From positions 3,116,735-3,180,734 of the forward strand of contig CM082592.2 of NCBI GenBank assembly GCA_040954595.2: DNA of 64,000 nucleotides. The letters run 5' to 3'. Of the stretch, positions 257 through 29,480 are shown in pieces. Below the pieces are notes generated by a model. It did not search any database and was not told the DNA's origin. It saw nothing but the letters and a program-made list of their open reading frames with translations. Position numbers and translations under genes: made by a program. This DNA is from Balanoglossus misakiensis. Its lineage: Eukaryota; Animalia; Hemichordata. Positions within the stretch are counted from its first letter, which is position 1, and each line of letters opens with the position of its first letter.

Positions 257-3200
257 CTTAACTTCCTGCAAAACGCCCTTCCAATCACAGCCTTTTGTGT
301 AGTTGCAACACTTGACTGGCAGATTTCCAATCTCCTTCCCAAAAGGAGTATCTACGTAGACCTGAATGTGACAAGAATCGATTCAAAGCAATTGGCCGAA
401 TAGAACGCAATGTATAACGATACAGCATATAACGTACAATTCAATAAATTGGGCTGAAACTTGATTTGAAACACTAAATACACACAGTCATAAACAAAGT
501 ACACATTGTGAAGATTCAAACGGTCGGCCTACAGAGATATTGCTCCACGTTCTCAAACACTTTAAGAACAACGCATCGGTTACTCACTCTGTCTCGGGAT
601 ACAGGAGTCTGATCAATCGGACAACGGGGAGATACTCTGTAAAACAAGATAAAACATACACAATGTCAGTTATGCGTATTTTCTTTCAAGGGGAAGCAAT
701 ATCCGGAAAAGTTTTAAAGAGAACATCCCTTGAGACCATAGCCAACGGACCGGACAACTTCCCCTTTACAAAACTGTTTACTGGAATGTGGTTTTGGCTG
801 CGTACCATTAAAGTCATCTATATCTTTCTGTATTTTGAATACCCATTACAATATCCAAAACCCTTTTAAGTATTTCTCATTTTTTTTTGATATCCCAAGG
901 CAATGAAAGACATTTATTGTCGTGGTAACCAAAGTTTATTCCTTGTCCACTCTACGCTCCCCGTTTTCTCAGAATTCCATTTTACCCAAACCACAATGAT
1001 TTAGTCTTCCCATCGCTGGTGTTCAGTCCACTACAAGTTCCCGGAGGATTTCTATCGCGCATTAAATTTGGTTGAGAAACTTGGTACATGACAAAAATAT
1101 TCTTATCACATACTATTACAAGACTGTTTATATATGCATAATTTGTGAAATAGATTGTACGTTAACTTCGAGATCTCACGAGACTTGGCTAATTACCGTG
1201 CAAAAGTTGCTGAAAAACTCTCGTCGTCCGTGTTCGAGTCGAGTCTCCTACCCCTTTCTGTTCACGTCTCTCTCAACAGGCACTACTTCAACTGCGCAAT
1301 TGGGATGGGGGCGCCTCTTTGTCTACTAAATTGTGACGTTGTTACAATTTTAGAGATAACGCGTTGTTGGCATCAAAGAAATACGTGTGTTTCTAGTTTG
1401 GCGGTTGTTGCAGCTATTTTGAATTTTGTGGTAATGGGTGCAGACTGAGTTTAAAAAACATTGTAACGTATGTGCCGTTTAACACGATGGGCCATGAGTT
1501 GTTTGTCCTGTGTCAAGTCAGAGAATGTTCTCCAATAGAAACTGCCGAGTTACAACGTTTATTAAATCATTGCCGTTGAAATACGGTATTTCTGGTTTTA
1601 TATGTCAAAATTACAATGGCCAGTAAACATAGAGTATCCGGAAGATGGGGCTTGACGAACTCCTATTTGTTACAACCGGTGTATGAAACCAACTTTAATA
1701 CATACGATTGATACTTTGACAAACATCTTCGCCCACAGTGCATTGCCTGGGCCGAAATTAAATTCCATCAATACTTTAGACGAATAATTCAAATATCCAG
1801 AGTCACTTTTCAAATGATACGGGACTAAAATGTCATAATCGACATAAAATATGCTGTGAAAACAATCACGTGACAGACATTTAATTCTTATTTGTAGTTT
1901 GGTCCGAATGTTAATGGATTACGTCATACCGACTACGGGCAGTTTACACTGCTTTGTATGTAGAACAAGGTATTGAATTGCTACGTAAGTTGCCTCGTGT
2001 ACACACTCGTGTCGCGTCGCCCGTTCCTGTGCGCGTCCAGTTGCTAACCGACTTGCCTCGTATAATTAGCCCTATATGATGTCGCTTTCATTGAGAGCAT
2101 CCGCCCTTCAGTATCGTATTTCTGTTTTCCTATATTACCTCCGAGTTTTGGTAATTCCATTTTTGCTGCTGGTAATTAGATCATCATTAATTTATGTGGA
2201 GGAAAAACAAGCCTTTTGATGCATAACAGGGGGAGAATACCAAACAGATTATTTGAAATGGTCAGCGTCATTTATGGTCACCAAACACGAGTGATCTATA
2301 ATTTAATTATGAAGGGGCGATTTCTCAATGTTTCAAAAAACATGATATAAGCAAACACAGAAACGACTGGTACACAAAAACTCGGGGAAATATAGTACAG
2401 ATCCCTGTCATGTATGACGAGATTTCCCATGTGGGCATTTCACGTGACTCGGCAATTACACTAATGAAAAAGTGTTCATGCATTGAAAAGTAATAATTGC
2501 TTTCAAATGATGGTTCCATACCCAATTCCGTTATTTTATTTAGTAAACCATGGCAACAGGTTGAAAAGCGAGACTTGTTGTTGAAAACTCCGTTACTGGG
2601 TTATAGAATTGTCAGTGGTACATTTAACATATTCGTTTAAAACTCATCACACGTTGCTTGTTTAGTTAACTAAATCGTTTGTTTTAATATATGATACAAA
2701 TTTCGTGTATTGTTCTTCTCGGTCATTTTAAACGCTTTGGATAAGAATGGGGGATTAAAAACAATATTGAAAACATTTTTGTCAATGCGACATTTGGGTT
2801 ATAGCGGTATCATAAAAGTAGCCACGTTTCACTATGCAATCCAAGCTATGGTCAAAGAGGAAGCAATGAGGAACACGAGCTCATCTATTTTGGGCTACGC
2901 TCATTTACTTTTTGCTGACTCACGTGTGGTATTAAACTGCAACATTTCTCTCATGTTTCTGCCATATAACCTGTATTGGTGGGCAAGTAGCCATACATAC
3001 ATAAGAAATACTGCAATTTCGTTTGATCTCTAACATTTTTTGCCATTCACGACTCAGTCAAAAATAAATGAGCGTACACCAAAATATACGAGAGAGTGTT
3101 AAGGATTATCGATTCTGTAAAACGTTAAGATCAATCATTCGCAATTCCTTGTTCACACGCATAAGCAGAGAATATTTATTTCGCCTTCTAAGCGTATTTA

Positions 3201-3772
3201 CGCCAACATTAGAACGGGTCATAGAATAAGCTTCCCCATAAAACTTAGATTCACTGAAACTGCACGAAACGTCCAAGATCATACCGTATTCCTGATTATC
3301 AGAGACCTTGGCTCAGATAAGCTGTTAATCAATTATATATTCAAACGGGAACTTTAATGTCTACATTCGTAGGTTTTTAAAAGTCGTCCCGATCTCCAAC
3401 TGCTTGAGAAGCCCTTGGTTCCGGTGCAATGTTGATGACAATACAGGGTATACATCTTAAGCTGACTGGTTCATACAAGTAGTTTTGTCTGACTCACCGT
3501 AATAGGTCGGGCAAGCATGATGAACACACGCGGTGGCCACAGTCTTCAAACTGAACTGGATATCTCAAAACCTGACAGCAGGCGGCACATTCGTATTTCT
3601 TATCCACGTTGCCTTCAAAACAGATCTCAAAATCACCCATTTTCGAATTACTCATGGAGGAACTACTACTTGTGGATGCCATCGAAATGCGAGAAGTGGC
3701 CGATCCCCGACGGGACGAACTGCTGCCACTGCTGGACATCGACATCGTGTCGAGATTATCTGGCTCCGGCAT
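257..3772 (-). CDS. TNF receptor-associated factor (TRAF4/TRAF6-like, RING + first zinc finger), 5' part; gene continues beyond the window start
   Basis: Exons 3772-3498, 636-588 and 361-257 have GT-AG boundaries and compatible phases. Spliced product: MPEPDNLDTM(Ser-rich)...KKYECAACCQVLRYPVQFEDCGHRVCSSCLPDLLR|VSPRCPIDQTPVSRDR|VYVDTPFGKEIGNLPVKCCNYTKGCDWKGVLQEVK. This is a C3HC3D RING ending in CPID followed by the TRAF-typical 'EI..L.V.C.....GC.W.G.L' segment. Confidence 0.9.
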
Positions 3773-5478
3773 TTTCTTCGACTTGATGACGGTATAGATT
3801 AGGTGTTTCTGGGAATATTGAAGGCGCGCGCTGGAGAGCGTAATGCTACGGTGGAGACCCGCGTTGAAAAACCAACTGGGACAGTGGAGACGAAATAGCA
3901 ATGCGTCACAGCTTCGTCGGAAGTTTGGCGCACTGTGCTGGGAAGGCGATTCTAATATTGATTAGAGTGCCCTTAATCCCTTCTTTTAATCAGACAAACA
4001 ATTATTCCTTCGTTTCCTTGGCAACAAAACCATCAGTCGATGAAAAAGACAACAGTACGAACAAGATGTATTGTCTATATGAATACATATTTAATGAGGT
4101 CGATTCTTTCAATCCACCTTATTGATCTCACGCATTTATTAATGTGTAAATGTGTACAGTAGACATTCGGAAGTCTGAAAGTTGTATTGCAGATGGACAA
4201 TTTGTGAGTCGTTGAATGTTTAATGTATTTGATATTAAATATTGTCAGTCGCAACCGATGTCCAACTCCCACATCCCAAGTCTTCGGCCAAGTGTGCAAG
4301 ATCGCGTGACCAGTTAGGGTTGAATACTACAGCACTGTTTTGATGGTAGAAATACCCGCTGTAGCCACAGTGTAAATCGTGATAGCCGTAGGACGTTCCG
4401 TAGTCGAGTCTCGCTTGCCAGATCTCCAAACCAGTCGTCTTTCATATCCAGCAATCGGGTGGCCAATCCGCGAGGCTGGATATTCACAGCCTCGTACTCC
4501 GCTGTACTAAACACTTACTATGTATTCCACACTGATTCAACGGCAATTTCTTGAACGAGGATGTTAATATCTGATCGCCCACAACAATGATTCACCTGTA
4601 ATATAGACGTGTGAATCGAATAGTAGTTCAAGGTTTATAGAATTTCGCATATGCGAAGGACGGTTGAAACAAAGATATTCACATCTTCTAAACACACGCC
4701 AAATGTATCCTTACAATGTAGCATACGGTTCGGTTTGCAGAGGTGTCTGGTTTACTAATACATTCATGTATTCACTTAGTGTTCGGTATAGACAGGTTTC
4801 CAGATTACACAGGGTTCTGTTCAGACAGTTTTTACTGAACAAATGATGTATTTGTCAGACGCACATTTCATCCACAACGGTCTAGCAGCGTTAGAAATAT
4901 ATCAAAGACTACAAAAGCTCAGTATATAAGATTGAAGTTTATTGACAAACTGTGTAAAGTGTCGTTATAGTAGCCCGTGCAATAAAAACGGTTTAACAAT
5001 GCTTCGAGTAAATAACTAAAGACATATACATTTCAAAATATGCCGGATGGATTTTTATCACATAACTAATGTCAGTAATTATTTGCTAATAGGCCTATGC
5101 CAAACGCGATTAACTTTCCATTCTAATACCTCAATGTCGTGAATCAGCCCTGTCAACTGGTATGATTTCTAGTCAGATTCTACGAATAAGTAACGACTAG
5201 TCATTGCTGTATAGACGACAATGTAAAAATTACGGCAGAATTGAAAATATATGCTTTCAAGGGTAAGTCTTTCGACAGCGGTTGTGAATTTTTAATCCCG
5301 GGAACCTTATAAACGAATAGCAGTAAAATTGATACAAGAAACTTCTGCAGTATCCCAGCTTTACAAAACACATTGTAGAATTTAGGAGTAAGACGCTCTA
5401 TATTCTTCAGAAAATACTTATAAAATGACGGTTCCTCGTCGGATGTCCGTAACTAGTAAATGTCACATTCCCGTGGTT

Positions 5479-6440
5479 CTATTCACATGCGTAGACCTCC
5501 ACTCTCATTGAAATGTGGCCCTCCCACGTCAGGGGATAGAATCGGACATACTGAGTGGTGAACGAGTTTTCGACCAAGTTGTGGTAGACTACCGTGTTCC
5601 TGTCAGAATTCCCTTGGAAAGTCTGGAAAGTGAAAAGAACACTCGTTTTAAGAGATTTCGCAATTCTTCAGGGAAACATCTTTGATGTGATTGGTCATCT
5701 TTCCCTAAATGACCTCGCTTTGAGTTCAAATTCATGATGGATGCATGGGGGCGCTAGACTTATGAAAGGGGTTCGTGCGTTTATAAAATTACGAGAAAGG
5801 AACAAAGACTGCATGTATGGATAAGAGAGACGGTAGAAAGGGGTTTTCACAAATCAATAAAATTACCATCTTTGGAATATTGTGAAATCTGCGATCTTGT
5901 ACAGTTTAGAAATCAGCAGCTACTTTGTGGTGACATGTTTTCGATTATGCGAGAAGTGGGTTTTGTGTCACTTAAGTTGTAACAGAGAAAAATTGAAGAC
6001 GTATTTCCCTAGCAATGTCATATTAAATGGTGTGACGACTCTAACACTTACCATGGGCGAGTGGTTTTCGTCTGCAACATATTTCCATTCATCGCCGTCG
6101 TAGTATTTTAAATGAAACGTCTCCACCCATTGGTCACAGCAGTTAGAACGTCCCTACAATACCATATAGACATTCATGTGTTATGGTTATATGTAGCGTG
6201 GGATTCATCAAATGTGAGGTCAAATGAGAACATCACGAATGGCTTCTATCATGACACTTCAATGGCCACCTTGTGCCTTTGAAGTTTGTGTGTTGACATG
6301 TGAACAATGAGGGCGCCAGTCATTAGATGCTGCCACTCTTAGAAAATTCCTCTCCGTAAAAGCCCGCGTAAAAAATTCCAGCAGTCGCCTTTTTCATTCC
6401 TAACCTTGCCCATATAAAGATGTTCCCCTCTACCTACATG

Positions 6441-6498
<58 letters not shown>

Positions 6499-6682
6499 GA
6501 GAGAGGGGGGCTGACAGACAGAGGGAGAGGGGAGCAAAAGAAAGAGATAGAGAGAGGAGGAACGAGCAGAGAGGAAGAGGGAGAAGGAGAGCGAGAGAGA
6601 GTGGGGAGAAAGAGAGAGAGGTAGGGCAAGAGGAATGGAGAAGGGAGAGAGAGGGAAGGGGGAGAGAGGGGGGAGAGGATGA

Positions 6683-6731
<49 letters not shown>

Positions 6732-9621
6732 GGTAGATTTTTAAATAGACCCCATGCCCGTCACTGTTCTGTTACGGCAATGACTCACCTGGGTCGCCAC
6801 TCTTGTTACTAGTCTCTCGTAACCGAGATCAACTTGCAGCCACTGTCCGGCGATATTCTGCAAGGCACACCAAGCATGCGACCCGGGTCCCACGTAGTTC
6901 AGTCTCCCTTGGTGGGGCATGTGGTCGTAACGCCAGTGGCTACTGGCCGTTATCTGCGAGTCCGGTATGTCGCCACTCTCTAAGCCAACAGCGGAGACTG
7001 CGCACAACAATTCATCTGCTGGAGAACCTACAATGTTCAGGATGTACGTTCAGTATAATTGAAAGTATTGTCATTTCTTTTAATTGTATATTTTTGGATT
7101 ATCCTGTGTACGTACATGTATAATAAAAATATGTGATAAAATACAGGGGTCACCGCGCTTGTTTGTGAAATACAGAGCCATGAATTTAGTCGATAATAGA
7201 AGGAAACTGCTGACTCAGCATTTTTCACCAATGGTTTGTCTATGGGCAAAATTTTTAACACAATTTATCTCAAAATAGAGCGTGGTGACCCCTTTATTTT
7301 ATTTGACCAACGAATTTATCTTTACTGGACTGAGCTATGTGTAAAATTTCGTGAAAATGACAATAGTAGATCGAAGTTTTTTTCTAGCCATTATCAACGA
7401 AATCCTATAGGGAAAAGACACTTTTTTGAGTTATACACTTACGTGGTTCTTTTTCGCAGATGAACCCCATGAGAATGTCGCAGTTGACATCGTTCCATTT
7501 CGCATGATATTTATCGCTGAAATGCAAGCAATGTTCGACATTGTCAACGTTGTTTGGTTCGCCGATTTTCCAATTAGTGTATGTCATCTGCCAAAGAATT
7601 GAGAGAGTTTGTTTGATTGTTTGTTTGTTGGTTGGTTGGTTGGTTGGTTGGTTTGGATTGTCCGTCTGTATTTCTGTCCGTCTATCTATATGTCTGTCTG
7701 TATGTCTGTGTTTGACGGCTGGAGTGAGCATGTGTGCACGGTCGCGATCGTATATACAGAGGAAAAGGACTTTTCCTGTGTCATCCGCATAGGCCGACGC
7801 CGTGTAAACGAACAATCGTCACGCATCTGTGCATGTGTGCAATATTTCCAGCGCCTTACAAACACGTGCGTAGATTGACGTCTTTCAAGGAGACATTGCT
7901 ATTGCTAATTAAAAATGCACCAATATGTGAATTGCTTTGCAATGAAATTCTTAACAGTTTTGTTTATTTGTTAACATCTGGAATCAAGGAACCTACGGTG
8001 TTGTGTGCGCACGACACACCCGGATGTGTTGCTGTAGATTTCTTTACATGGCATTGCACTCTCTGTACAATTTTATTTGCATTGTTGTAAAAATACGAAA
8101 ATGGTGGTGTACATTTTGACCTTTAACCTCGCCGACTTGAAGAGACAAGAGGAAAATAAACCATTTCAAAACGACTGAGATGGGATGGGTGCTTTTTCCA
8201 AACTATTCAAACATGTCCGCGTAATTTCTTATAGATAATCACGTCTACATTATCATGGATCTTGTACGGCCCCAAATAATATTAACACAAGGACTCACCG
8301 GGGTATTGTCTTCCCACATCCAGGTTCCTTCATTTTCACGATCGTTTGCACCCAGCCACATGTTAACTTTGTCTTCTGTATACCCTGCGATAAAAGAGAT
8401 TGATTTCGAAAAGTTGAATTTTCCCCGATAAATGTACGTAAATTATGAGTCTCGTTGTAATTTAATGGCCAAGCTCTTTTGGCAGAGAAAAATGTATGAT
8501 TAACACATGATTTTGCTTTATACGTTCTGAATAATTTTCTTTTGTACGATTCAGATAAAATCTGACCAAAACAATGTTGTTCATCTGACATGGTCACCGA
8601 CCTTTCAAATACAAATCCTCTTCGACGTTGTTTATCTTCGCCAATGCACCTCCCATTGCCATGCACAGCGTCCTTGCTTCATCGTAGGTATACAGCGGAA
8701 ACTGGTACGCGTAGTAGCATTTGTCCTTAAAACTGTCCCAACCGGACTCGCAACCTGTAACACGCACAAAAGTCAAAGAACGGAAAAAAAGCAGGTTAAT
8801 TTTTAAACCATACTATAGGTTCTAAAAGACGTTGGATGAAAATATAAAAGTCAGTCTACCAAATTGGGCTAATCAAATTTCAGATTTGCTAATAAAATAC
8901 ATCTCACAACAATTGGCAATGGTTATCTTGTTCTTGTAATATTGAGTCGTTAATGTTTGCACGCACGCCAGGCTGTCCGGCACGATTGTCGGTATATACA
9001 CACATAGACTCTCTCACTTCCCACGGTTCGCTACAAGGCTCTTCACTGATGCGCCCTCAACTGTTTAGCAAAGGAGAAGCCCCATATGGTGTTGTGTAGC
9101 GCCGGGCACACATACAATCAGTCCATAAGCCTGCATGGACGACGAGAGGGGCTGTGAGAGAGTCTAATACACACAATGAAATGAGCGCTGACAGCCGACT
9201 GTTGCGTCCGGGGTGGAATATGGACAGTCGGACTGCGTTGTCGATCAACTGCACCCAGTAGTTTATAGTGTTCCGTTTACCGCCAAAACTGGGTTAAAGA
9301 AATGTTGATGGTAAAAAGGTCGACCGACCTCTTCCAGTTGGTTCAATAGTAGCTAAGATGTTAATACTATACTCCACCCCCTGGAACATACGACTCAACT
9401 CGATCGCCAAACCACAGTGACAAATATTGACCAAGTCGGAATGTCTTGTTGTAGCACCTCAGAATCGATATACAATTTACCAAATCTCGTGCCAATTTCT
9501 GTGCGTATTACGAGAGTAACAGAGTATGCTTACCTGACTGGCTACGGTTGGCGTCACATTTCATACCAGTTGAAATAATAACCAACAGTCCAAGCAAAAT
9601 AGAGGTCGATGCTTCTACCAT
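5479..9621 (-). CDS. Secreted C-type lectin domain + F5/8 type C (discoidin) protein, EPN-motif paralog (318 aa)
   Basis: Seven coding exons (9621-9534, 8754-8602, 8384-8299, 7587-7443, 7027-6789, 6153-6052, 5622-5479; 957 nt), all GT-AG and in frame. Signal peptide MVEASTSILLGLLVIISTG. CTLD: CESGW...KCY...WLGAND...W.W...YTNWKIGEPNN...HC...WNDVNC...FICE. Discoidin: GLESGDIPDSQITASS...GRLN...QWLQVDLG...VATQG...FQGN...YVRFYPLTW...SMRVEVYAC. Confidence 0.92.
6444..6730. repeat. (GA)n / purine-rich simple repeat in lectin intron 5 (mirror CT-rich tract at ~16102-16357)
   Basis: Seen directly. Confidence 0.9.
7045..7420. mobile_element. Interspersed repeat fragment filling intron 4 of the EPN paralog
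   Basis: Homologous in reverse orientation to ~29115-29480 (shared blocks such as atagagcgtggtgacc / ggtcaccgcgctctat and tgtctatgggcaaaat / attttgcccatagaca). Confidence 0.75.
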
Positions 9622-10393
9622 CTTGTCGGAAAAGGGGCTATCTGAGAAAATATGAACATCCGTTTTTTTCGACAAAGGTTTTTTGACATGTTTATTGAAA
9701 ATGTACAGTCTTCAGTCTCATATCCATAAACCTCTCTCCCAAATCTGATTAAAATATGAGATAGGCGGCGTCATTATTATCCTTACTCGGTCTCTGCTGT
9801 TCGCGTTTTGTTCACCGTTGTTGACGCGGCTATACCTCTTCATATTGATCTATCATCCAGAATACTTTCAACACCCGCAAAATACTTTTTGACTTGCCTA
9901 ATTGAAATAATAACCAGCAGTGCAAGTATTTGGATACCACCAAACCATTGAAATGTACTTGGAAAAGAGAATATTCTCCGCATACATAATGAAAATTGTG
10001 TAGTTTGAGTAGAACGTGTAATAAAAGTTAAACTTACGACTAAATGAGAGTGCAGCCCGGAGTTACGTCGTTCCTTCTCTCGGAGTCACTTGAACAATTG
10101 CGGCGAGTACGAGGCCGCCTTATTTATGGTCTTCAAACAGGATACTGGATCCCGGATGTTACGAGAAAAAAACAGGACTTATATTGTTTATCATTATCAG
10201 GTTTCTCGGTACAAAAAAACGCGAGAAGAATTAATACAAAGTGTAAATTTAGTGAGAGCTGTTGGTATCGAAGGATTAAACACTCGTATAACAGCTGGAT
10301 TAGGGAAATGATTGTGGTGTATTTTGATTACACGTTTTATCATGATTGTTTTAACTCTTAGTTTATCACGTGGCTGTAAGTAAGTCGCAAACA

Positions 10394-10845
10394 TCAATCA
10401 ATCAATCAATCAAAACAAACATTTATAAAGCGCCAGAATCAATAACAATGTTATTTCCAAAGGCGCTGAAAGTATAACATCAGTGTTCGTAGGCTTTGAG
10501 AAATAGAAATGTCTTACTAGAAGCCTGTTGAATGTCAGATGGCAGAGAATTCCAAAGTTGTGGCGCGACAACGGAAAAGGCACGTCCACCATATGTTTTG
10601 AGTCTGTACTTTGGTACACACAACTGGTTCCTTGAGCTGGAGCGCAGAGCACGACTAGGCTTATATGGCTTGATCAGATCCTGAATGTAGACTGGGGCAA
10701 GACGGTTGAGAGCCTTGTACGTTAGTAGTAGAATTTTGTAGTCGAGTCTGTGTCGAACTGGCAACCAAAGGAGACTATGAAGAACTGGTGATATGTGGTT
10801 TGATTTCCTCGTGCGGGTAACATGCGATATTCTTCTCTGAGTCAT
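10394..10845 (-). mobile_element. 5'-truncated L2/CR1-group LINE 3' end with (TTGA)n tail
   Basis: HISPVLHSLLWLPVRHRLDYKILLLTYKAL...LRSS...GGRAFSVVAPQLWNSLP is the typical L2/CR1-group ORF2 C-terminus, followed by a short 3' UTR and a tandem TTGA tail. A partial copy lies at 12076-12272. Confidence 0.85.
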
Positions 10846-10989
10846 GCCATTTCTGAGTTATGTTCAAATATTATGTATTTGGGGGGCAGTAACGTACTTT
10901 TTGTACCTAAGCCATTCCATCACAATGCAATAATACAATGTAACACAACTCAATAAAATGGTGTAAAGGCACCTTACCGTATATATTAG

Positions 10990-12076
10990 TCTTGCTCCAA
11001 GACTGTGTGATACTGAAAATGAAATGCGCGTCCGTTACGTATAGAACGTCCTGTGGACGCGACGCTAATCACACTGGCGGCGCGTCGTACGAACGAAAGT
11101 TCCATTCCTTATCGACAGCGACTGCCATAGAGTCTACTTATATATAAGAAACAATATTATGTCCCGACGAAGTGATTAGCGATCGCTAATATAACCAAAT
11201 CATTGCGTTTACTTGGAAAAGGTACAATTTCGAGGAAAATAATGCACAAAGTACATAGTTGGAGTGGAAAGTCAAGGTAGAACTCCGAAGTGAAATTCAA
11301 AATTACACATTCTATAAGACTCGAAGTTGAAAGCCGAATATACTTGAAGTTAGGTGTTTTTTCTCCTTCCTGCTTTCAGAGTCATTTGATAACGTCGTAG
11401 GGCTTGCCTTTTCATAGTACCCAAACCGGGCGTCTGATTTAACGATATCAGCTTGTTTATATTATTTCTAGGCAAAATAAATGATATGAAGGATCAAACG
11501 CCAGTATGAGAGCCACTTGGGTATCAAAACGCATCTCAGTGCTCAAGTATTTATCAAGTGGGTCTTCCTGGACCTGTTACTCCTTCCAGATTTTTTCAAC
11601 GAAATGTAAGTTCTGTTTCCTGTTGTTAAATATATACACCGGAAAGGATAGAACTTTTAATATCGTGGATTCGTGAACTTTGGACTGAATGGGTGACCTT
11701 CGTCGAGGGGCTGTTCCTTCACGCTCCACCGGTTTGTACTAAACTTTAGACTGTATGAATGACAGACAGTCTACGAAGTAAAAATGTACTCCTTTCTGCA
11801 AATGGTTGCTGTAACAGGGTGCCTCGCTTGAGGACATGAAGTGGCAGTTGCATTACTCAAAAAGTCCCCTAACCGCACGCAGTATGCAGAGATTCGATTT
11901 TTTTCCCGAGTGGTGTCTTTTCTAAGCTGTGTTCGCGTCTAAAATACGTTTTTGACAATATCGCCCATGAAGTTATGGGATCTAACGCGCTTTAGGTAAT
12001 CCAGTCTATAACAACACAAATCGATACTGTTATGTCTTGAATCCGTTGCTGAGATTCGATTGGCCAGACGATGACT
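10990..12076 (+). repeat. ~1.08 kb direct repeat, copy 1 (in the spacer between the inverted arms)
   Basis: tcttgctccaagactgtgtgatactg...ttggccagacgatgact recurs almost identically at 18575-19642, apart from a few small indels. Confidence 0.95.
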
Positions 12077-12537
12077 GTCGCGCCACAACTTTGGAATTCT
12101 CTGCCATCTGACATTCAACACGCTTCTAGTCTCAACATTTTCAAACAAAAACTCAAGACATTTCTATTTCTCAAAGCCTACGAACACTGATGTTATACTT
12201 TCAGCGCCTTTGGAAATAACATTGTTATTGATTCTGGCGCTTTATAAATGTTTGTTTTGATTGATTGATTGATGTTTGCGACTTACTTACAGCCACGTGA
12301 TAAACTAAGAGTTAAAACAATCATGATAAAACGTGTAATCAAAATGCACCACAATCATTTCCCTAATCCAGCTGTTATACGAGTGTTTAATCCTTCGATA
12401 CCAACAGCTCTCACGAAATTTACACTTTGTATTAATTCTTCTCGCGTTTTTCTTTACCGAGAAACCTGATAATGATAAACAATATAAGTCCTGTTTTTTT
12501 CTCGTAACATCCGGGATCCAGTATCCTGTTTGAAGAC

Positions 12538-12628
12538 CATAAATAAGGCGGCCTCGTACTCGCCGCAATTGTTCAAGTGACTCCGAGAGAAGGAACGACG
12601 TAACTCCGGGCTGCACTCTCATTTAGTC
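12538..12628 (+). promoter_or_regulatory. Putative TATA-like element and non-coding first exon of the QPD paralog (mirror copy at ~10038-10128 for the EPN paralog)
   Basis: CATAAATAAG at 12538, a GTAAGT donor at 12629, and a pyrimidine-rich acceptor (ttttctcag, 13024) 20 nt upstream of the ATG, which implies an upstream UTR exon. The transcription start is inferred only. Confidence 0.4.
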
Positions 12629-13044
12629 GTAAGTTTAACTTTTATTACACGTTCTACTCAAACTACACAATTTTCATTATGTATGCGGAGAATATTCTCT
12701 TTTCCAAGTACATTTCAATGGTTTGGTGGTATCCAAATACTTGCACTGCTGGTTATTATTTCAATTAGGCAAGTCAAAAAGTATTTTGCGGGTGTTGAAA
12801 GTATTCTGGATGATAGATCAATATGAAGAGGTATAGCCGCGTCAACAACGGTGAACAAAACGCGAACAGCAGAGACCGAGTAAGGATAATAATGACGCCG
12901 CCTATCTCATATTTTAATCAGATTTGGGAGAGAGGTTTATGGATATGAGACTGAAGACTGTACATTTTCAATAAACATGTCAAAAAACCTTTGTCGAAAA
13001 AAACGGATGTTCATATTTTCTCAGATAGCCCCTTTTCCGACAAG

Positions 13045-16000
13045 ATGGTAGAAGCATCGACCTCTATTTTGCTTGGACTGTTGGTTATTATTTCAACTGG
13101 TATGAAATGTGACGCCAACCGTAGCCAGTCAGGTAAGCATACTCTGTTACTCTCGTAATACGCACAGAAATTGGCACGAGATTTGGTAAATTGTATATCG
13201 ATTCTGAGGTGCTACAACAAGACATTCCGACTTGGTCAATATTTGTCACTGTGGTTTGGCGATCGAGTTGAGTCGTATGTTCCAGGGGGTGGAGTATAGT
13301 ATTAACATCTTCGCTACTATTGAACCAACTGGAAGAGGTCGGTCGACCTTTTTACCATCAACATTTCTTTAACCCAGTTTTGGCGGTAAACGGAACACTA
13401 TAAACTACTGGGTGCAGTTGATCGACAACGCAGTCCGACTGTCCATATTCCACCCCTGACGCAACATTCGGCTGTCAGCGCTCATTTCATTGTGTGTATT
13501 AGACTCTCTCACAGCCCCTCTCGTCGTCCATGCAGGCTTATGGACTGATTGTATGTGTGCCCGGCGCTACACAACACCATATGGGGCTTCTCCTTTGCTA
13601 AACAGTTGAGGGCGCATCAGTGAAGAGCCTTGTAGCGAACCGTGGGCAGTGAGAGAGTCTATGTGTGTATATACCGACAATCGTGCCGGACAGCCTGGCG
13701 TGCGTGCAAACATTAACGACTCAATATTACAAGAACAAGATAATCATTGCCAATTGTTGTGAGATGTATTTTATTAGCAAATCTGAAATTTGATTAGCCC
13801 AATTTGGTAGACTGACTTTTATATTTTCATCCAACGTCTTTTAGAACCTATAGTATGGTTTAAAAATTAACCTGCTTTTTTTCCGTTCTTTGACTTTTGT
13901 GCGTGTTACAGGTTGCGAGTCCGGTTGGGACAGTTTTAAGGACAAATGCTACTACGCGTACCAGTTTCCGCTGTATACCTACGATGAAGCAAGGACGCTG
14001 TGCATGGCAATGGGAGGTGCATTGGCGAAGATAAACAACGTCGAAGAGGATTTGTATTTGAAAGGTCGGTGACCATGTCAGATGAACAACATTGTTTTGG
14101 TCAGATTTTATCTGAATCGTACAAAAGAAAATTATTCAGAACGTATAAAGCAAAATCATGTGTTAATCAAACATTTTTCTCTGCCAAAAGAGCTTCGCCA
14201 TTAAATTACAACGAGACTCATACTAGTAATTTACGTATAATTTAGTAAATTTATTGGAGAAAATTCAACTTTTAGAAATCAATCTCTTTTATCGCAGGGT
14301 ATACAGAAGACAAAGTTAACATGTGGCTGGGTGCAAACGATCGTGAAAATGAAGGAACCTGGATGTGGGAAGACAATACCCCGGTGAGTCCTTGTGTTAA
14401 TGTATAGTTATTATTTGGGGCCGTACAAGATCCATGACAATGTAGACGTGATTATCTAAGGGGAATTACGCGGACATGTTTGAATGGTTTGGAAAAAGCA
14501 CCCATCCCAGTCGTTTTGAAATGGTTTAATTTCCTCTTGTCTCTTCAAGTCGGCGAGGTTAAAGGTCAAAATGTACCCCACCATTTTCGTATTACAACAA
14601 TGCAAATAAAATTGTACAGAGAGTGTGCCTAGTCTCGGTTACCCAGACTCCTTCGCGCGGGCTACCTTCTGGCTTTGGCGATAGCCCGCGCGAAGGAGTC
14701 TGGGTAACCGAGACTAAGAGTGTGCCATGTAAAGAAATCTACAGCAACACATCCGGGTATGTCGTGCGCACACAACACCGTAGGTTCCTTGATTCCAGAT
14801 GTTAACAAATAAACAAAACTGTTAAGAATTTCATTGCAAAGCAATTCACATATCGGTGCATTTGTAATTAGCAATAGCAATGTCTCCTTGAAAGACGTCA
14901 ATCTACGCACGTGTTTACACGGCGCTGGCCTATGACACAGGAAAAGTCCTTTTCCTCTGTATATACGATCGCGACTGTGCACACATGTGCACTCCAGCCG
15001 TCAAACACAGACATACAGACAGACATATAGACAGACGGACAGAAATACAGACGGACAATCCAAACCAACCAACCAACCAACAAACAAACAAACAAATAAA
15101 TAAATAAACACACACACATGGCATATGTAAGTAAGCGAAGTAGGCGATTTCTTTACCTCGTGTCAACTTAAAATCGAGAAAAATATCCCTCTCAACTTTT
15201 TTTGCAGATGACGTACACTAATTGGAAAACCGGCCAACCAGACAACGCTGACAATGTCGAACATTGCTTGCATTTCTACCATAAATATCATGCGAAATGG
15301 AACGATGCCAACTGCGACATTCTCATGGGGTTCATCTGCGAAAAAGAACCACGTAAGTGTATAACTCAAAAATGTTATGCCATGCCCAAGATTACAAATA
15401 TTCATAGTTTTTTTCCATAGTGCTTATCCATACTGTACAGCAGTAGTTTAATGCACCTTGAATTCAACCGTGATACAGAAATGATTCGATAAGTAGATCA
15501 AAGGGCGCAAATTTCTGATTGGTTATTGTAAAAAGCGCTCTATAACTAGTATCTGCTATGATTAACATCGTAGTCGTAGATTTAAGCTTGTTACCAAAGG
15601 GATATTTTTTCTTTTGCATGACGATTTTCTGTTCAAAGCCATAATTTGGTGAATTTATACATTTTAATACGAATCTCTCTGTCACATTGCACAATTAGAT
15701 GCAGTATGTGTTCACTAAAAAGCCTACATCCACACAGAAATTGATTTCCCAGTTTGGCCAGAGTGGGTAAACGCTCATTTCAGCTCCATTTTTACATTGT
15801 AGGTTCTCCAGCAGATGAATTGTTGTGCGCAGTCTCCGCTGTTGGCTTAGAGAGTGGCGACATACCGGACTCGCAGATAACGGCCAGTAGTCACTGGCGT
15901 TACGACCACATGCCCCACCAAGGGCGACTGAACTACGTGGGAACCGGGTCGGATTCTTGGAGTGCCTTGCAGAATATCGCCGGACAGTGGCTGCAAGTTG

Positions 16001-17352
16001 ATCTCGGTTACGAGAGACTAGTAACAAGAGTGGCGACCCAGGTGAGTCATTGCCGTAACAGAACAGTGACGGGCATGTGGACTATTTAAAAATCTACCAT
16101 TTCTCTCTCTCTCTCTCCCCCCCCCCCTTCCTCTCTCTCTCTCATCCTCTCCCCCCCTCTACCCCCTTCCCTCTCTTTCCCCTCTCCATTCCTCTTCCCC
16201 TACCTCTCTCTCTTCTCCCCACTCTCTCTCGTTCCCCTTCTCCATCTTCCTCTCTGCTCGTTCCTCCTCTCTCTATCTCTTTCTTTTGCTCCCCTCTCCC
16301 TCTGTCTGTCAGCCTCCTCTCTCTCCCTCCCCTCTCTCTCCCTCCCCCTCTCTCTCTACATCCATGTAGGTAGAGGGGAACATCTTTATATGGGCAAGGT
16401 TAGGAATGAATAAAGGCGACTGCTGGAGTCTGCGAAATTGTCCAATTTTTTACGCGGGCTTTTACGGAGAGGAATTTTCTAAGAGTGGCAGCATCTAATG
16501 ACTGGCGCCCTCATTGTTTACATGTCAACACACAAACTTCAAAGGCACAAGGTGGCCATTGAAGTGTCATGATAGAAGCCATTCGCGATGTTCTCATTTG
16601 ACCTCACATTTGATGAATCCCACGCTACATATAACCATAACACACAAATGTCTATTTGGTATTTATAGGGACGTTCTGACTGCTGTGACCAATGGGTGAA
16701 GACGTTTCATTTAAAATACTACGACGGCGGTGATTGGAAATATGTTGCAGACGAAAACCACTCGCCCATGGTAAGTGTTAGAGTCGTCACACCATTTAAT
16801 ATGACATTGCTAGGGAAATACGTCTTCAATTTTCTCTCTTACAAGTTAAGTGACACAAAACGCACTTCTCGCATCATCGAAAACATGTTATCACAAACCA
16901 GCTGCTGATTTCTAAACTGTACAAGATCGCAGATTTCACAATAGTCCAAAGATGGTAATTTTAATGATTTGTGAAAACCTTTTTCTACCGTCTCTCTTAT
17001 CCATACATGTACGTGTCCAGGCTTTGTTCCTTTCTCGTTAAATTTTATAAACGCACGAACCCCTTTCATAAGTCTAGCGCCCCCATGCATCCATCCTGAA
17101 TTTGAACTCAAAGCGAGGTCATTTAGGGAAAGATGACCTATCACATCAAAGATGTTTCCCTCAAGAATTGCGAAATCTCTTCAACCGAGTGTTCTTTTCA
17201 CTTTCCAGACTTTCCAAGGGAATTCCGACAGGAACACGGTAGTCTACCACAACTTGGTCGAAAACTCGTTCACCACTCAGTATGTCCGATTCTATCCCCT
17301 GACGTGGGAGGGCCACATTTCAATGAGAGCGGAGGTCTACGCATGTGAATAG
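13045..17352 (+). CDS. Secreted C-type lectin domain + F5/8 type C (discoidin) protein, QPD-motif paralog (318 aa)
   Basis: Seven coding exons (13045-13132, 13912-14064, 14298-14383, 15208-15352, 15803-16041, 16669-16770, 17209-17352; 957 nt), all GT-AG and in frame. Same architecture as the minus-strand copy, but exon 4 reads YTNWKTGQPDNADNVEHCLHFYHKYHAKWNDANC. Confidence 0.92.
14630..14716. mobile_element. 87-bp hairpin MITE, TAG...CTA termini, 10-bp TSD
   Basis: tagtctcggttacccagactccttcgcgcgggcta + loop + perfect reverse complement. Flanked by agagtgtgcc at 14620-14629 and 14717-14726. The site is empty in the left arm (~8050-8062). Confidence 0.9.
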
Positions 17353-17769
17353 AACCACGGGAATGTGACATTTACTAGTTAAGGATATCCGACGAGGAAT
17401 CGTCATTTTATAAGTATTTTCTGAAGGATATAGAATGTTTTACTCCTAAATTCTACAATGTGTTTTGTAAAGCTGAGATACTGTAGAAGGTTCTTGCACT
17501 CACTTTTAAAGTTCCCGGGATTAAAAATTCACAACCGCTGTCGAAAATCATTTTACCTTAGACTTACCCTTGAAAGTATATATTTTCAATTCTGCAATAA
17601 TTTTACATTGTTGTCTATACAGCAATGACTAGTCGTTACTTATTCAAATAATGTGATTAGAAATCATAGTTGACAGAGCTGATTCAATGTCAATGAGGTA
17701 TACGGTAATAAAGGAAAGTTTGGCAGATTAGCAATTAATTACCGACATTAGTTACGCGAAAAAAATCCA

Positions 17770-18240
17770 TTTTGGTGGTTCTGGCGTATAGGCCTATATT
17801 GAGGGAGAATTCCTTCGCCTTCAGTCTCGGTTGTATCTTCAGCTAGTCAACAGTAGCATTTTTTGTAAGTACATTATTTCAAGTGTACATGTACGAGCGT
17901 TTGTTAATTCGATTTCTTTTGACAATGCTTTGCATAGGGGCGCCTGAGTTATTAACGAAATTGGATTTTGAGTATACAAAGTCCGCGCGTTAGGTCCCAC
18001 ATACAACCGCATACAATGTCTGTCGAATTATTGTTGGACATATTTCACAAATTTAACCTTTGAAGATTTTCACCTTTCCGTTTGGTGTTTCAGACCAGGT
18101 GTTTAAAGAAAAGAAAGTGTCAGTATGTAGGCATTGCTAAAGTGAACTCAAAGTATTGTATTGTAACATTTGGCGATATGAGTTACTAGTATTTTTGTAT
18201 TGTACACACATAATATCTTTCCCCTACCAAACTACCAAAA
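17770..18240. mobile_element. ~470-bp insertion specific to the right arm, with short imperfect TIRs
   Basis: Absent at the homologous left-arm site (~5046). Ends read ttttggtggttctgg / ccaaactaccaaaa. Confidence 0.5.
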
Positions 18241-18574
18241 CGTCGGCATATATTGAAATTTAAAGTATATGTCTTTAGTTATTTACTCGGAGCATTGTTA
18301 AACCGTTTTTATTGCGCGGACTACTATAATGACACTTTACAAAGTTTGTCAATAAACTTCAATATTATACAGGGAGCTTTTGTAGTCTTTGATATATTTC
18401 TAACACTGCTAGACCGTTGTGGATGAAACGTGCGTCTGACAAATACATCATTTGTTCACTGTCTGAACCGAACCCTGACTAATCTGGAAACCTGTCTAAA
18501 CTGAACTCCCTTTCCAGTCCCCTTCAAATAAAACGATATGTCAAGTGAATACATGTATATGTAAACCAGACACC

Positions 18575-19642
18575 TCTTGCTCCAAGACTGTGTGATACTG
18601 AAAATGAAATGCGCGTCCGTTACGTATAGAACGTCCTGTGGACGCGACGCTAATCACACTGGCGGCGCGTCGTACGAACGAAAGTTCCATTCCTTATCGA
18701 CAGCGACTGCCATAGAGTCTACTTATATACTAGTATAAGAAACAATATTATGTCCCGACGATCATTGCGTTAACTTGGAAAAGGTACAATTTCGAGCAAA
18801 ATAATGCACAAAGTACATAGTTGGAGTGGAAAGTCAAGGTAGAACTCCGAAGTGAAATTCAAAATTACACATTCTATAAGACTCGAAGTTGAAAGCCGAA
18901 TATACTTGAAGTTAGGTGTTTTTTCTCCTTCCTGCTTTCAGAGTCATTTGATTACGTCGTAGGGCTTGCCTTTTCATAGTACCCAAACCGGGCGTCTGAT
19001 TTAACGATATCAGCTTGTTTATATTATTTCTAGGCAAAATAAATGATATGAAGGATCAAACGCCAGTATGAGAGCCACTTGGGTATCAAAACGCATCTCA
19101 GTGCTCAAGTATTTATCAAGTGGGTCTTCCTGGACCTGTTACTCCTTCCAGATTTTTTCAACGAAATGTAAGTTCTGTTTCCTGTTGTTAAATATATACA
19201 CCGGAAAGGATAGAACTTTTAATATCGTGGATTCGTGAACTTTGGACTGAATGGGTGACCTTCGTCGAGGGGCTGTTCCTTCACGCTCCACCGGTTTGTA
19301 CTAAACTTTGGACTGTATGAATGACAGACAGTCTACGAAGTAAAAATGTACTCCTTTCTGCAAATGGTTGCTGTAACAGGGTGCCTCGCTTGAGGACATG
19401 AAGTGGCAGTTGCATTACTCAAAAAGTCCCCTAACCGCACGCAGTATGCAGAGATTCGATTTTTTTCCCGAGTGGTGTCTTTTCTAAGCTGTGTTCGCGT
19501 CTAAAATACGTTTTTGACAATATCGCCCATGAAGTTATGGGATCTAACGCGCTTTAGGTAATCCAGTCTATAACAACACAAATATATCGATACTGTTATG
19601 TCTTGAATCCGTTGCTGAGATTCGATTGGCCAGACGATGACT
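18575..19642 (+). repeat. ~1.07 kb direct repeat, copy 2 (abuts the outer end of the right arm)
   Basis: Near-identical to 10990-12076. Confidence 0.95.
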
Positions 19643-21288
19643 ATCGGTGCCTGGGTGTGTTGCGATAGCTCCGCGCGCACCAACACCGAAGACATTCTGG
19701 ATTACCAAGAATCCAAAGCATGCAAAGCGTATACATGTAACTGCTTGTTTAGTTCAACGATCAGTCTTCCCTGTTTGCGGTGTTTTTTTGTCTTAATAAA
19801 TGTACATTAGTATTTGAAGCCCATAGACTTGGAGCAAGTCTACTCTTTTCGCAATTCTGTGAAGATTTCAAGAAAATGACTATTGTAACACCGTTTTCTC
19901 AAATTTCTACATGTAAGGCTATGGAATGTGATAACCAGGCACTGCATCTGGGTAGTTATCTAAATAGTAAAACACATGTCATCAAAGCCAATGACGTCAT
20001 CAGCATGCTCAACTCTTTGTCAGATTTGAAACTTCACTTGTTAAGCAAGGAGAAAGGAATTTATAACAAGGAGACAAGTTTATCGCAGCTGACATAATAG
20101 TAGACTCCCTGCTAACGTTTGAAGTGGATTCAAGTGTAGGATCGTGTCAGAGAATGCATGTAACAAGAGCATGCAAGAAACTACACGCACGCATCCATTT
20201 GATCTAGATTGGCTGAGAGGGCGCTATATAGTTATGTGGATGTTATACGTTGAGCGCATAGCAACGTTGTAACTTTGCTTCACTACCAATCATATTGCAA
20301 ATTTGGCTGTGATTTCGTTAAGTCATTGGGATGTGTTTTGTAAATTCTTTAATTTCTGTTTATATGAAGTGCGAAAAACCTTCAGAAGTTGTACAATGAC
20401 CTCCCCTGGATACAGATTCCACGGCGTTACTATTGTAGTTTGCCGATCAACCATTTCACCTAAACTGAATACGTGCTGTAAACATTACTCGTTGACAACA
20501 ATTAACATCGAGTGGGAACGGAGGAGCGTATCGCACCCTATTTCAAATGAAGGTTTCCATTGTTCAAATGAATTAAGAATTTCAGCTGGTTTTACAGAAA
20601 TCTCTATACCTCTAAAGACTTTTACGTAACCACTGTTGATTTTAATCTTCTCTGTGCATCTTAGACAAATCCCTAAAAAGCCAGGGAAATATGGCAGCCA
20701 ACCGTAATCAATGCGAGAGAGTCGGCATTTCTTAAACTTATCAGTGTTTGCTGAAAATCCACGCACCTTTCTGCAAGTACAATTCTGACGGAGACGAACA
20801 TAAGGGGTGATGATTTTGTCAGCTGCCATCTTTCAATTGAATGAATGTTGTAAGGAGTTGTGCCTTTGATACAGAATCGATGTCATAACTACACCTCGGT
20901 TTGAACAACATAAATGACGTGCATAGATGTTGATTGCGGTGGCGAATACACCCCCGTTCTAGAATGGTTCGGGCCATTTTTCCTGGCAATATTTCATCCG
21001 CAACAAATAGGCTTGTTGGTGCAGCAGGGGAAATGAACAGGGCGTCGCCGCCAGCTAATAAGCAAATGGATGTCTCAAATAGCGCCTGTCAAATCATATC
21101 TGGCTAGAATGTCATCATAATGTTGGGTTCGTTTACATGTCAGGAAGTGATATACAGTAATGGAGAGTTGTAGATCATCATCCACAGTGACGAGACAGTA
21201 CAACAACATCTGGTGAATTCGAAATGCGGTTATCATCACGTGAGGTCATCGACAGAAACAACCGGTACCCGCTCCCGTCAATCAGTGA

Positions 21289-24200
21289 ATGGAGAACAAC
21301 ACAACAATAAGTATAGACACAAGCGCGTTTGAAGAACCATTTTGTTGCGAAATTATGGACACGTCAACTGATGAGCAGTTTAAGCGTCTCGAGGACATTG
21401 GAGATTTTATCAGCTGCAGTGACGGAATCGGAAGCACGGCAACGCCGCCAGAGGAAATCTTCACAGAGGACGCAAATACGACGGGAAACATCGACAGATA
21501 TGATGCAGTAGAGTCGTGCACTTTTGAAGAATCTGGCGGTCAGACATTACTGACTCATGCGCTATGTACTATACCATGTGTTTGCACTCAGGCAGACAAC
21601 TGGGGCTTAGCTGGATGGATGCCGAACTTATTCGAAGACGACACTGTTAAGTTGAAAAGAACAAAGCGAAGACCGAAATTCCCTTACAGACTCGCCTACA
21701 GCACGTATAGAGAACCTCCCTATGTGTTTCGTCATTACTCCGATGTGTCCAAGTATATCGAACAATATAGGTATCACCACACAAGGGGAGATATATGTAA
21801 AGACAACGAGGAAAAATTAATTCTAGGTTATAATGTGCCAGATCCGTATAGACCTAAACTGCATCGCTTCAGGTAAGGGTCATCTGGTATTTGACGTATG
21901 ATTTTTTTTAAAGAACCAAACCTTTATTTTGTTTGGAATAGAATAGATTTGGCTGAAACAAAAAGAGAACAGACAGAAAAGATAGAAAAATGGGCCTATA
22001 AAACATTTAGCGACCGATAGAAACGAATGGACGAAGCAGATTTTGTATTACACTATTCCAGATCATTCGAAAACGCCATTTTCGATGTGACGTTCAAGTG
22101 CATATGTGTGCGAGAGAGCGATATTTTACTGCTTTTAAAATAAATTTAGAATCAGTAAGAAACAGAGAACGCTTCAAATGCGTCACTGTCAGCAATGAAA
22201 TTTGCGAATGCTGTGGTTGGGTGCTTCGTTGCCTAGAGCGCAAACGACAACACGATCTAAGGTATAGCAAAGTATTATCTGAGCGTTTGTAGATATTGCA
22301 AGGTGTACTAGTCGACGCTACCCGAAACCACAAGCTCAGTCGCAAATTCGAAACTCGCCTCACTACCAAAAACACGCTAAAGGCAAGCATGCACGCAAAA
22401 AGTATTGAAATTATTTATTAAGACAAAAAACCACCGAAAACACAAAAAGTATTGAGATTTAAAAATCACCAAGCGACTAGTGGGCTAGTCTATCCAAGCG
22501 TATATACTTTCCGAGTTGTGTTACTAGTATATTGTCATCATTGGTGTATTGATAAACGTGATTAGTGTAATCCCCGTATGTCAATGCAAGAACAAGATGG
22601 TCATTATTTCTGAATAGGAATGTACAATACCGACTGAAGGACAATGAACGACGTCTATCAACTCACATTTCCTGTCCATTTCAAATTTATACGTGTACAT
22701 TTCCGCTAATTCAGTCTAATTCCTTGTCACACTCAACACACAATAAAAACAGGGACTCGTGTTCAAATTTACACGGATATTTTACAAAGATCTGTCCGGC
22801 GTTTGCATATTTTCACATATAATCATTTTGCGAATACTGAACATTTCAAAACCAACATACTGCTGTGTGTTAATAATTATGTTACTATGGCAACGGAATT
22901 GCCATGCGCTCGTCCTCGAGTGGTTAATTGCGCGTAAGCTCATTTAATCTTGGAGTGTTCCGATCGCAGTAACAGACTATGCGATGCATATCTAACGTAG
23001 AACGGCATATTCATTTTTTAATATTCCCCACTACATTGGAACGATACAGCAGCCAATGATATATTGGTTAAAAAGCTTGGGGTGGAATACAGACGCGATA
23101 AACCTGGTTAAATGAAGCCCTCTGCCAGTCATTCCACTTTGAGAAATTTGACTGGATCTTCAGTATAACTGTACTCTGCTTTTTCGTAAATGCCTGCGAG
23201 TGTGCCTACATGATAATATATCGTAACAAGACTTCAAAGCGAAATGTAAAGGAGTCCTTAGATACTAGTAGGCCTAACCTCAAAATGTGAGGAAGAACCA
23301 TTTTGTGACTTTCTTCAACACATGTCTGAAATGAACATAAGAATTTAACTCGTCTTTTGTTAATCGGTACAAATTGGACTTCTGTTATGGATTGACTCGC
23401 GGTGATATTTGCCAGGAATTTCCAGCCAAGAAGTAAACGTGGCTTACAGCACGGGTAAATAGTTTTACTAGCTAGTTCTCCGATCGTTATTTACTCGGAC
23501 CGACTTTGGTTTTCTCACTGCTTTGTCTGACTCGAACGTTGTTGTCATGGTGACGACAGTCTTGAAATGTAAACTGTGAAGTTAACGTCCATGTGGTCCG
23601 TGATGCTTGACCGTAGTGTTTAGCTTCCATGGCAACGAACTGGCGAGATTGAATGGCATCATATATTCACTCTAACAGACTCGCAAACATACAAACGTAC
23701 ACAATTGAATGGTCGGTTTCGCCATTCTTAACTTATACAGTAACTGTATGGGTTGGTGTATCAGATATCGATGTTTGTCTGGAATGGAATTGCATCAATG
23801 TTAGATTTTCATTTTAGATTTGGAGTCCTAAAACGTTGTTCATCTTTCTTCGTCTATCTCCATCCCCGTCTTTGTTCACGTTTTTCAGTGTTTGAGTAGA
23901 CTGACCAATGTGTAGAGTGACCACTACACTGGTCCCCCTTTGTATTGACGTCGACTGACACCTGTTTGAGTTGCTACCTCTGTTTGTGTAGACGGACCCG
24001 GCCATGATTCATGAACGCCCCCAACCCTCCATGTTTGTGTAGAGAGAACTCAGAGAAAATTGTATAGACTGACCTCTATTCGTGTTAATAGGCTGGGATT
24101 TGCTAACTTGAAATTATGTACTTAAATGTTTAGAGTAAAGACATCTGATATGGCATTCGTGTATAAAGCACAAGATGTCGACTCTTTTACAGGTGCGCAC

Positions 24201-29114: not shown

Positions 29115-29480
29115 GTCTTTTACCATAGGATTACATTGAGAATAGCAAGAAAACTTTCTTCTACGTTTGTCATTTTCGTAAAATTTTACACATAGCTCAG
29201 TTAAGTAAAAATAAATCCACCGGTCAAATAAAATCGTTTGGTCACCGCGCTCTATTTTAAGATGAAAATCGCTAAATATTTTGCCCATAGACAAAACATT
29301 GGTGAAAAATGCTGACTTAGCAGTTTTCTTCAATTATCGACTAAATTCGCGGCCTTGTATTTCGAAAACAAGCGCGGTTCCCCTGTATTTTATTACAGAT
29401 TTTCATTATAAATACAACAGAGAAACCAAAAATCCACAATTAAAATAACTGACAATACCTTCAATTTTACAATCGTACAT
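29115..29480. mobile_element. Interspersed repeat, same family as 7045-7420
   Basis: Reverse-complement similarity to 7045-7420 over ~370 bp. Confidence 0.7.

Follow-up and report, generated by a model that had tools for sequence, protein, structure and literature searches.

Introduction

How can two neighbouring and almost identical lectin genes come to carry opposite sugar-specificity motifs, and would the motifs make a difference to what the proteins bind? This question is raised by a stretch of 64,000 nucleotides (nt) of the acorn worm Balanoglossus misakiensis (contig CM082592.2), here called the window, in which two head-to-head lectin genes, copy A and copy B, are 95% identical and encode 318 amino acids (aa) each. 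At the sugar-binding site copy A carries the motif EPN and copy B the motif QPD. The reading put forward here, to which we give about even weight, is that an inverted duplication holds side by side a mannose-type lectin (A) and a galactose-type lectin (B), that EPN is the newer motif, and that the duplication is young and made of older variants. The rule linking EPN and QPD to sugar preference was derived in large part from engineered proteins of mammals, and some invertebrate lectins do not obey it. A pair that differs at 16 of 318 residues, five of them at sugar contacts, allows a direct test of the changes that would flip specificity.

Structure of the gene pair

A sequence-only reading of this DNA had described two intact seven-exon genes combining a lectin domain of the C type (CTLD) with a discoidin domain and having identical exons 1-3, and had assigned EPN to copy A, QPD to copy B and WND to each. 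Splicing at the coordinates of Table 1 confirmed all of this. The coding exons of both copies measure 88, 153, 86, 145, 239, 102 and 144 nt, their introns are GT-AG in 12 of 12 cases, the reading frames are open, and no stop, frameshift or splice loss was found. Nucleotide differences amount to 0, 0, 0, 9, 6, 4 and 2 over exons 1 to 7. The extent previously given for the pair, 5479..17352, is right for the genes, but the duplicated unit reaches beyond it. No copies beyond A and B were detected with tblastn within the 64-kb window, and a word search with exon 4 of copy B gave no match.

Table 1. Coordinates of the lectin genes and of the segments of the inverted duplication in the window.
Feature	Position	Strand	Remarks
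Copy A (EPN)	5479..9621	-	7 coding exons, 318 aa
Copy A coding exons	9621-9534, 8754-8602, 8384-8299, 7587-7443, 7027-6789, 6153-6052, 5622-5479	-	
Copy B (QPD)	13045..17352	+	7 coding exons, 318 aa
Copy B coding exons	13045-13132, 13912-14064, 14298-14383, 15208-15352, 15803-16041, 16669-16770, 17209-17352	+	
EPN codons (119-121), copy A	7552..7560	-	
QPD codons (119-121), copy B	15235..15243	+	
WND codons (140-142), copy A	7489..7497	-	
WND codons (140-142), copy B	15298..15306	+	
Left arm P	4740..10575		likely original position; self-comparison
Right arm, inverted copy of P	12076..18575		likely inserted; self-comparison
Segment Q	10571..10989		single in window; holds rest of LINE-like fragment
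Direct repeat X	10990..12080		upstream of copy B
Direct repeat X'	18575..19646		downstream of copy B
Junction J1, X to inverted P	12076..12080		microhomology of 1-5 nt depending on switch placement
Junction J2, inverted P to X'	18572..18577		microhomology of 3 nt
Divergence change point, intron 2	14170 (8496 in copy A)		0/2000 permutations as extreme
Hairpin insertion (94 bp), intron 3 of B	14628..14721		absent from A
Repeat in intron 4 of A	7041..7419		80% to 29115-29481

The Pfam profile Lectin_C scored above cut-off on exon 4 of both copies and below cut-off on exon 2; the WLG core and the cysteines of the CTLD align with those of relatives, and the profile of a sugar-binding C-type lectin domain is matched. 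F5_F8_type_C was above cut-off on exons 5 and 7 of copy B. The solved structures nearest to this second domain are neuropilin and the C domains of factor V/VIII (neuropilin-1, E 8e-18); exon 6 alone had no meaningful match in the PDB. The N-terminus is hydrophobic by eye and no membrane segment was seen, so both proteins may be secreted. At 12683-12770 (+) and at the mirror position in the left arm, some 300 bp upstream from the start codon, lies a short frame similar to the hydrophobic stretch of exon 1; it may be a signal-peptide exon, either alternative or relic.

Exon 4 and the sugar-binding site

Exon 4 differs between the copies by eight nonsynonymous nucleotide changes in seven codons and one synonymous change, exactly as had been counted before. 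The residues concerned (A/B) are 117 I/T, 119 E/Q, 121 N/D, 123 V/A, 133 S/Y, 134 D/H and 143 V/A. The best PDB match of copy A exon 4 is the fourth carbohydrate-recognition domain (CRD4) of the human mannose receptor CD206 (1egg, 7jub; E 2e-9), with EPN and WND in register, and in the gap-free comparison all five ligand positions of the principal Ca2+ site (119, 121, 127, 141 and 142) are kept in both copies. Glu and WND are taken here to act as Ca2+ ligands. According to the available part of its description, Tyr729, Glu737, Lys739, Ile749 and His753 of CRD4 are contacts or near neighbours of the bound sugar (PMC7949135); they map at a constant offset to 123, 131, 133, 143 and 147. Together with the five Ca2+ ligand positions they form a set of 10 among 48 aligned positions. 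Five of the seven changed residues of exon 4 fall on this set (P=0.0025), and three of five still do when the motif positions 119 and 121 are excluded (P=0.03-0.04). Both motif positions are swapped to their exact canonical partners, with three further contact positions changed alongside.

From these residues copy A would be predicted to prefer mannose, N-acetylglucosamine (GlcNAc) or fucose, and copy B galactose-type sugars. A mannose-type domain would favour sugars with equatorial 3,4-OH. Both proteins may be expected to bind sugar in a Ca2+-dependent manner at site 2, and they probably differ clearly in preference, in the expected direction. They may serve in the recognition of surface or immune glycans.

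Several points count against so direct a reading. Across 14 relatives the 16 sites of change vary more than the remaining ones (p=0.005), which inflates the test for clustering on contact positions. The EPN/QPD rule and its exceptions are set out in the accessible portion of PMC10377782, in which CEL-IV carries EPN and yet binds galactose, and in which changing QPD to EPN in CEL-I alone gave no switch, mannose preference requiring an extra Trp-to-His exchange. For molluscs the rule is called simplified, bivalve lectins often departing from it (PMC12842671, as far as its available text goes). Copy B has Ala at 123; its Tyr133, found in B only, takes the place of Lys739 of CRD4, one of the secondary contacts. 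Position 123 of copy B presumably corresponds to that of the aromatic residue on which galactose stacks in CEL-I; since Ala rather than an aromatic residue is found there, galactose binding by copy B may be weak. The two specificities of the pair are a prediction, because EPN and QPD have been exchanged repeatedly in the family as well as in snake lectins, and the rule is broken by sea cucumber lectins. An AlphaFold model of the relative P0154 was set aside as unusable (pLDDT 44).

Exons 5-7 contribute nine more residue changes between A and B, all in the second domain. Four of them cluster at 205-211, in a loop preceding the conserved Trp that matches neuropilin b1 in the alignment; both the loop and residue 241 are assumed to face a ligand pocket. 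At 16669-16690 (+) and 6132-6153 (-), R239-x-D241 in copy B (N241 in copy A) together with adjacent cysteines recalls the loop of F-type lectins, whose motif is given as HX24RXDX4(R/K) in the available part of PMC5712786. An assignment to these fucose-binding lectins was rejected: the basic triad is missing, with Q214 in place of His and W246 in place of Arg/Lys. The adjacent cysteines (242-243) of the window pair are absent from the relatives aligned over that loop.

Substitution pattern

Positive selection in exon 4 is not supported by the counts. The nonsynonymous excess of exon 4 has an odds ratio of 1.57 (Fisher p=1.0). The ratio of nonsynonymous to synonymous rates (dN/dS) over exons 3-7 is 1.06, and the nonsynonymous density of exon 4 matches the 5.0% measured in introns (p=0.39), as relaxed constraint would also produce; both figures weigh against the reading put forward here. 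Exon 4 does stand apart from the rest of the gene, with eight nonsynonymous changes in about 120 sites vs 9/451 for exons 3, 5, 6 and 7 (p=0.013). The latter are below the intron rate (p=0.005), which suggests that the genes are constrained outside exon 4. Exon 4 itself is either relaxed or positively selected.

The same figures could be read in another way, namely that the two genes do exist but are close to equivalent in function or are drifting, with no flip in preference or with one copy barely expressed. A dN/dS of 1.06 fits this account, as do the hypervariability of the binding-site positions in the family, the known counter-examples to the motif rule, and the replacement of the upstream region of copy B beyond 969 bp. 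It is nevertheless considered unlikely: drift would have had to bring both motif positions to their exact canonical partners and to alter three more contact positions, while leaving two genes free of disabling lesions (stop, frameshift or splice loss) and with the exons other than exon 4 constrained against the introns.

Relatives and the direction of the motif change

A search with exon 5, in which 10 of the 150 matches listed were looked up, yielded named relatives from Ptychodera flava and Glandiceps talaboti, and further searches enlarged the set, which includes XP_070572211.1, XP_070572120.1 and XP_070563235.1 of Ptychodera flava and XP_077985569.1 and XP_077985081.1 of Glandiceps talaboti. 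The acorn worm relatives have the same layout of CTLD and F5/8 type C domain, are 302-322 aa long and mostly keep WND; the full-length ones are 45-63% identical to the window pair. The family appears unstudied and bears automatic names only.

Position 119 is Q in 10 and E in 4 of 14 relatives, one of the latter being the degenerate P0095. All eight Ptychodera relatives in the clade enclosing the window pair (support 100/100) have Q at this position, within QPD (4), QPN (1) or QPS (3). The tree left out P0095 (degenerate motif, long branch), and an earlier tree the partial sequences P0153, P0098 and P0045; polarity is based on the letters of the relatives and on label counts. As the nearest relatives carry Q at 119 in 8/8 cases, the EPN of copy A is likely the derived state, having arisen from QPD, and the natural EPN-to-QPD switch claimed earlier likely ran in reverse. 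The end branches measure 0.042 for A and 0.011 for B. When the 16 differing sites were polarised by the relatives, the letter of B was favoured at eight and that of A at two, six being unclear; this split is not significant (two-sided 0.11, by hand).

The motif seems to have moved more than once in the family, since Glandiceps P0174 has EPN but is separated from copy A by well-supported branches, being 67% identical to the QPD-bearing P0076, and EPD and QPN intermediates occur. The Glandiceps members P0076, P0174, P0183 and P0184, which likely lie on one chromosome, carry QPD, EPN, QPD and EPD, respectively, and likely represent an older, independent radiation of the motif.

Anatomy and age of the duplication

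Self-comparison of the window revealed an inverted duplication around 11.3 kb with the order P, Q, X, inverted P and X', followed by unique sequence. A fragment which we take to resemble a long interspersed nuclear element (LINE), Pfam giving no match for it, runs across the P/Q boundary, whereas in the right arm it breaks off where the arm begins; copy A is therefore likely at the original position. The direct repeats X and X' (about 1.1 kb) differ by 5 mismatches in 1062 aligned letters (0.5%) and by 3 indels. Within the arms a sharp boundary is seen in intron 2: with microsatellites and the non-homologous intron 4 left out, 10 of 2070 aligned letters differ before 14170 (0.5%) and 78 of 2140 after it (3.6% including exons). 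Introns 2, 3, 5 and 6 differ by 4.1-5.4% and the distal flank by about 7-8%; intron 3 shows insertions of 94, 79 and 60 bp, transposon-like indels are present, and the copies share no homology in the middle of intron 4. The earlier description of the pair as recent therefore holds for the duplication and its 5' part (0.5%), but not for the part that bears the motifs, whose introns differ by 4-5.5% and contain transposon-like indels.

P may have been copied in inverted orientation, and X repeated, through two template switches at short microhomologies; microhomology at both junctions is what is expected of two such switches. The divergent 3' part may have been acquired by either of two routes: the other haplotype would have served as the template, or copy A would have taken up a divergent 3' haplotype later, by crossover in intron 2. 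By either route the EPN and QPD forms would predate the duplication by which they are now linked on one chromosome. This combination of a young duplication and an older 3' haplotype is favoured because it explains the divergence figures with the fewest events. A point against it is that heterozygosity for single-nucleotide polymorphisms in two acorn worm species is 0.5% and 1.3%, below the 3' divergence, according to the available part of PMC4729200. In the same text many haplotype scaffolds of Ptychodera are about 94% identical by BLASTN, and an allelic gap of this size is thus possible in the group. A more far-reaching version, which we offer only tentatively, is that both forms were once old balanced alleles, now locked on one chromosome by the young inverted duplication. 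If true, the animal would be a permanent heterozygote for glycan specificity, and allelic immune diversity would be turning into a gene family.

The same mosaic could also result from an older duplication (about 5%), after which the binding site of copy A changed while gene conversion homogenised the inner 2 kb and X/X'. A 3' divergence of 4-8% with several insertions exceeds a heterozygosity of 0.5-1.3%, most polarisable changes lie in A (8 B-like against 2 A-like sites, 6 unclear), and the homogeneous part adjoins the spacer of the inverted repeat, all of which would suit this history. Two separate conversions, both at 0.5%, would be needed, however, where one young duplication explains both, and the 8-to-2 split falls short of significance (two-sided 0.11). 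We regard the older duplication as an unlikely course of events.

Read contigs, transcription and upstream regions

Contigs from three sequencing runs of one sample (X1, X2 and X3) were compared over 10420-15000. A contig of X1 (record 7) matches intron 2 of copy B with 0 other letters, the A-type joint lacking the hairpin appears in contigs of X1 and X2, and at 12346 and 12415 the letters of A are found in X1 and those of B in X2; both sequence types are accordingly present in the sample. Weighing against a duplicated pair, the single sample may be the source of the assembly, J1 was not found among the matches listed (24 contig pieces, with 1962 more outside the listing, in contigs that drop variants), and the one listed contig that covers 12080 departs from the window sequence beyond that place, as X' would lead one to expect.

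These observations raise the question of whether alleles were misplaced on one chromosome by the assembly, each real chromosome having one gene and EPN/QPD being a polymorphism. The divergence lies within the range reported for Ptychodera haplotypes, both junctions abut repeats, J1 is absent among the contigs listed, and the finding of both A-type and B-type letters in a single sample would be expected of alleles no less than of paralogs. Such an error would nonetheless have had to invent two precise microhomology junctions and an inversion in a window without N. A fold-back read would yield identical arms and not a mosaic, and the letters of X and X' both occur in the runs (at 12019, X' type in X1 and X type in X2). 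Misplacement is judged very unlikely, and a duplication on one chromosome is the reading preferred.

In record 22 of X3 (181 letters) exon 2 passes straight into exon 3, intron 2 being absent, and the beginning of exon 4 follows. Although X3 is recorded as a guessed DNA run, RNA is the likely source of this record, and the spliced joint means that transcription and splicing occur in one copy at least, or in a further copy identical to it; X1 lists no joint of exon 2 and exon 3, and exon 1 is without contig cover in X3, an absence that carries no weight. The sequence of record 22 stops immediately short of the first A/B difference in exon 4, which hints at a fork between two transcripts, although a merge with another paralog could also end there. 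Over exon 2 (13908-14065), X1-X3 contain contigs with 5-8 other letters, one of which, in X3, runs into exon-3-like letters; these point to further paralogs at 90-95% identity. Contig depth over X (11089-12080) is 292-327 in X1 and about 978 in X2, higher than over the shared arm (216-232 and about 630-675); X and the shared arm are both double in the window, and depth is no measure of copy number.

The start codons are 3.4 kb apart and the two versions of exon 4 are 7.8 kb apart. Only 969 bp upstream of the start codons are common to both copies; beyond this, X precedes copy B and Q precedes copy A. The near-identical divergent promoters of the earlier reading are thus conjectural. An acceptor-like stretch about 20 nt before the start codon makes an untranslated exon further upstream possible.

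Comparison with known systems

The pair shows a known phenomenon in a very clean natural form; that its history is mosaic had been missed earlier. In the literature searched (titles and starts of abstracts, subscription journals being largely outside), neither a report of a near-identical EPN/QPD gene pair nor a dedicated paper on the family combining CTLD and F5/8 type C domains was found. The engineered swap in MBP-A reportedly went from EPN to QPD. The MBP-A and CEL-I swaps exchange the same two residues as the window pair; unlike in these mutants, the change here is natural; its likely direction, QPD to EPN, is that of CEL-I. Position 123, which follows the motif by two residues and is presumably the one that mattered in CEL-I, is Ala/Val in the window pair vs Trp/His in CEL-I, and five more residues of exon 4 and nine of the second domain differ as well. 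CRD4 of CD206, the best PDB match of copy A exon 4, is one domain of a membrane receptor, with other residues at its secondary contacts.

Natural exchange of the motif within one family, as in the window pair, is also known from cyprinid and snake lectins. A cyprinid (carp) homologue of MBL was reportedly predicted by Vitved in 2000 to bind galactose. Snake venom lectins are described, in the available part of PMC8742412, as having repeated origins of QPD from EPN. As far as these accounts go, the snake and cyprinid shifts map to old branches, and none of them concerns a pair of neighbouring genes with 95% identity such as that of the window; the EPN and QPD proteins of Glandiceps, for comparison, are 63-67% identical.

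A parallel for the proposed history is the heterogeneous duplication of mosquito ace-1 (PMC6121789, in its accessible part), where, as would be the case in the window, two divergent forms share a chromosome and the duplication is seemingly younger than the forms. The window pair differs in that its allelic origin is deduced from one assembly, in its inverted geometry, and in that it encodes a recognition protein and not an insecticide target. With regard to what defines such duplications, the copies are contiguous in the window without N, and 0.5% vs 3.6-8% divergence fits a young duplication, a pattern that conversion can mimic. If the allelic history were true, a recognition gene would join the few known cases of Haldane's heterogeneous duplication.

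Other features of the window

A RING finger match is located at 3497-3961 (-) (Pfam E 8.7e-5), and a weak match to the VPS13 adaptor-binding domain, below cut-off (E 0.01), at 465-866 (+). Long acidic or low-complexity open frames at 21289-21873 and 26671-27648 (+) have no Pfam match and are likely exons of a neighbouring gene; an Atlas search with the frame 26671-27648 gave no match. At 46909-47836 (-) broken frames were noted, one piece of which was scanned with no Pfam match; we take them to resemble the tail of a LINE reverse transcriptase. Tandem arrays occupy 41258-44486 (53 bp unit), 39113-40429 (343 bp) and 48626-50418 (about 285 bp).

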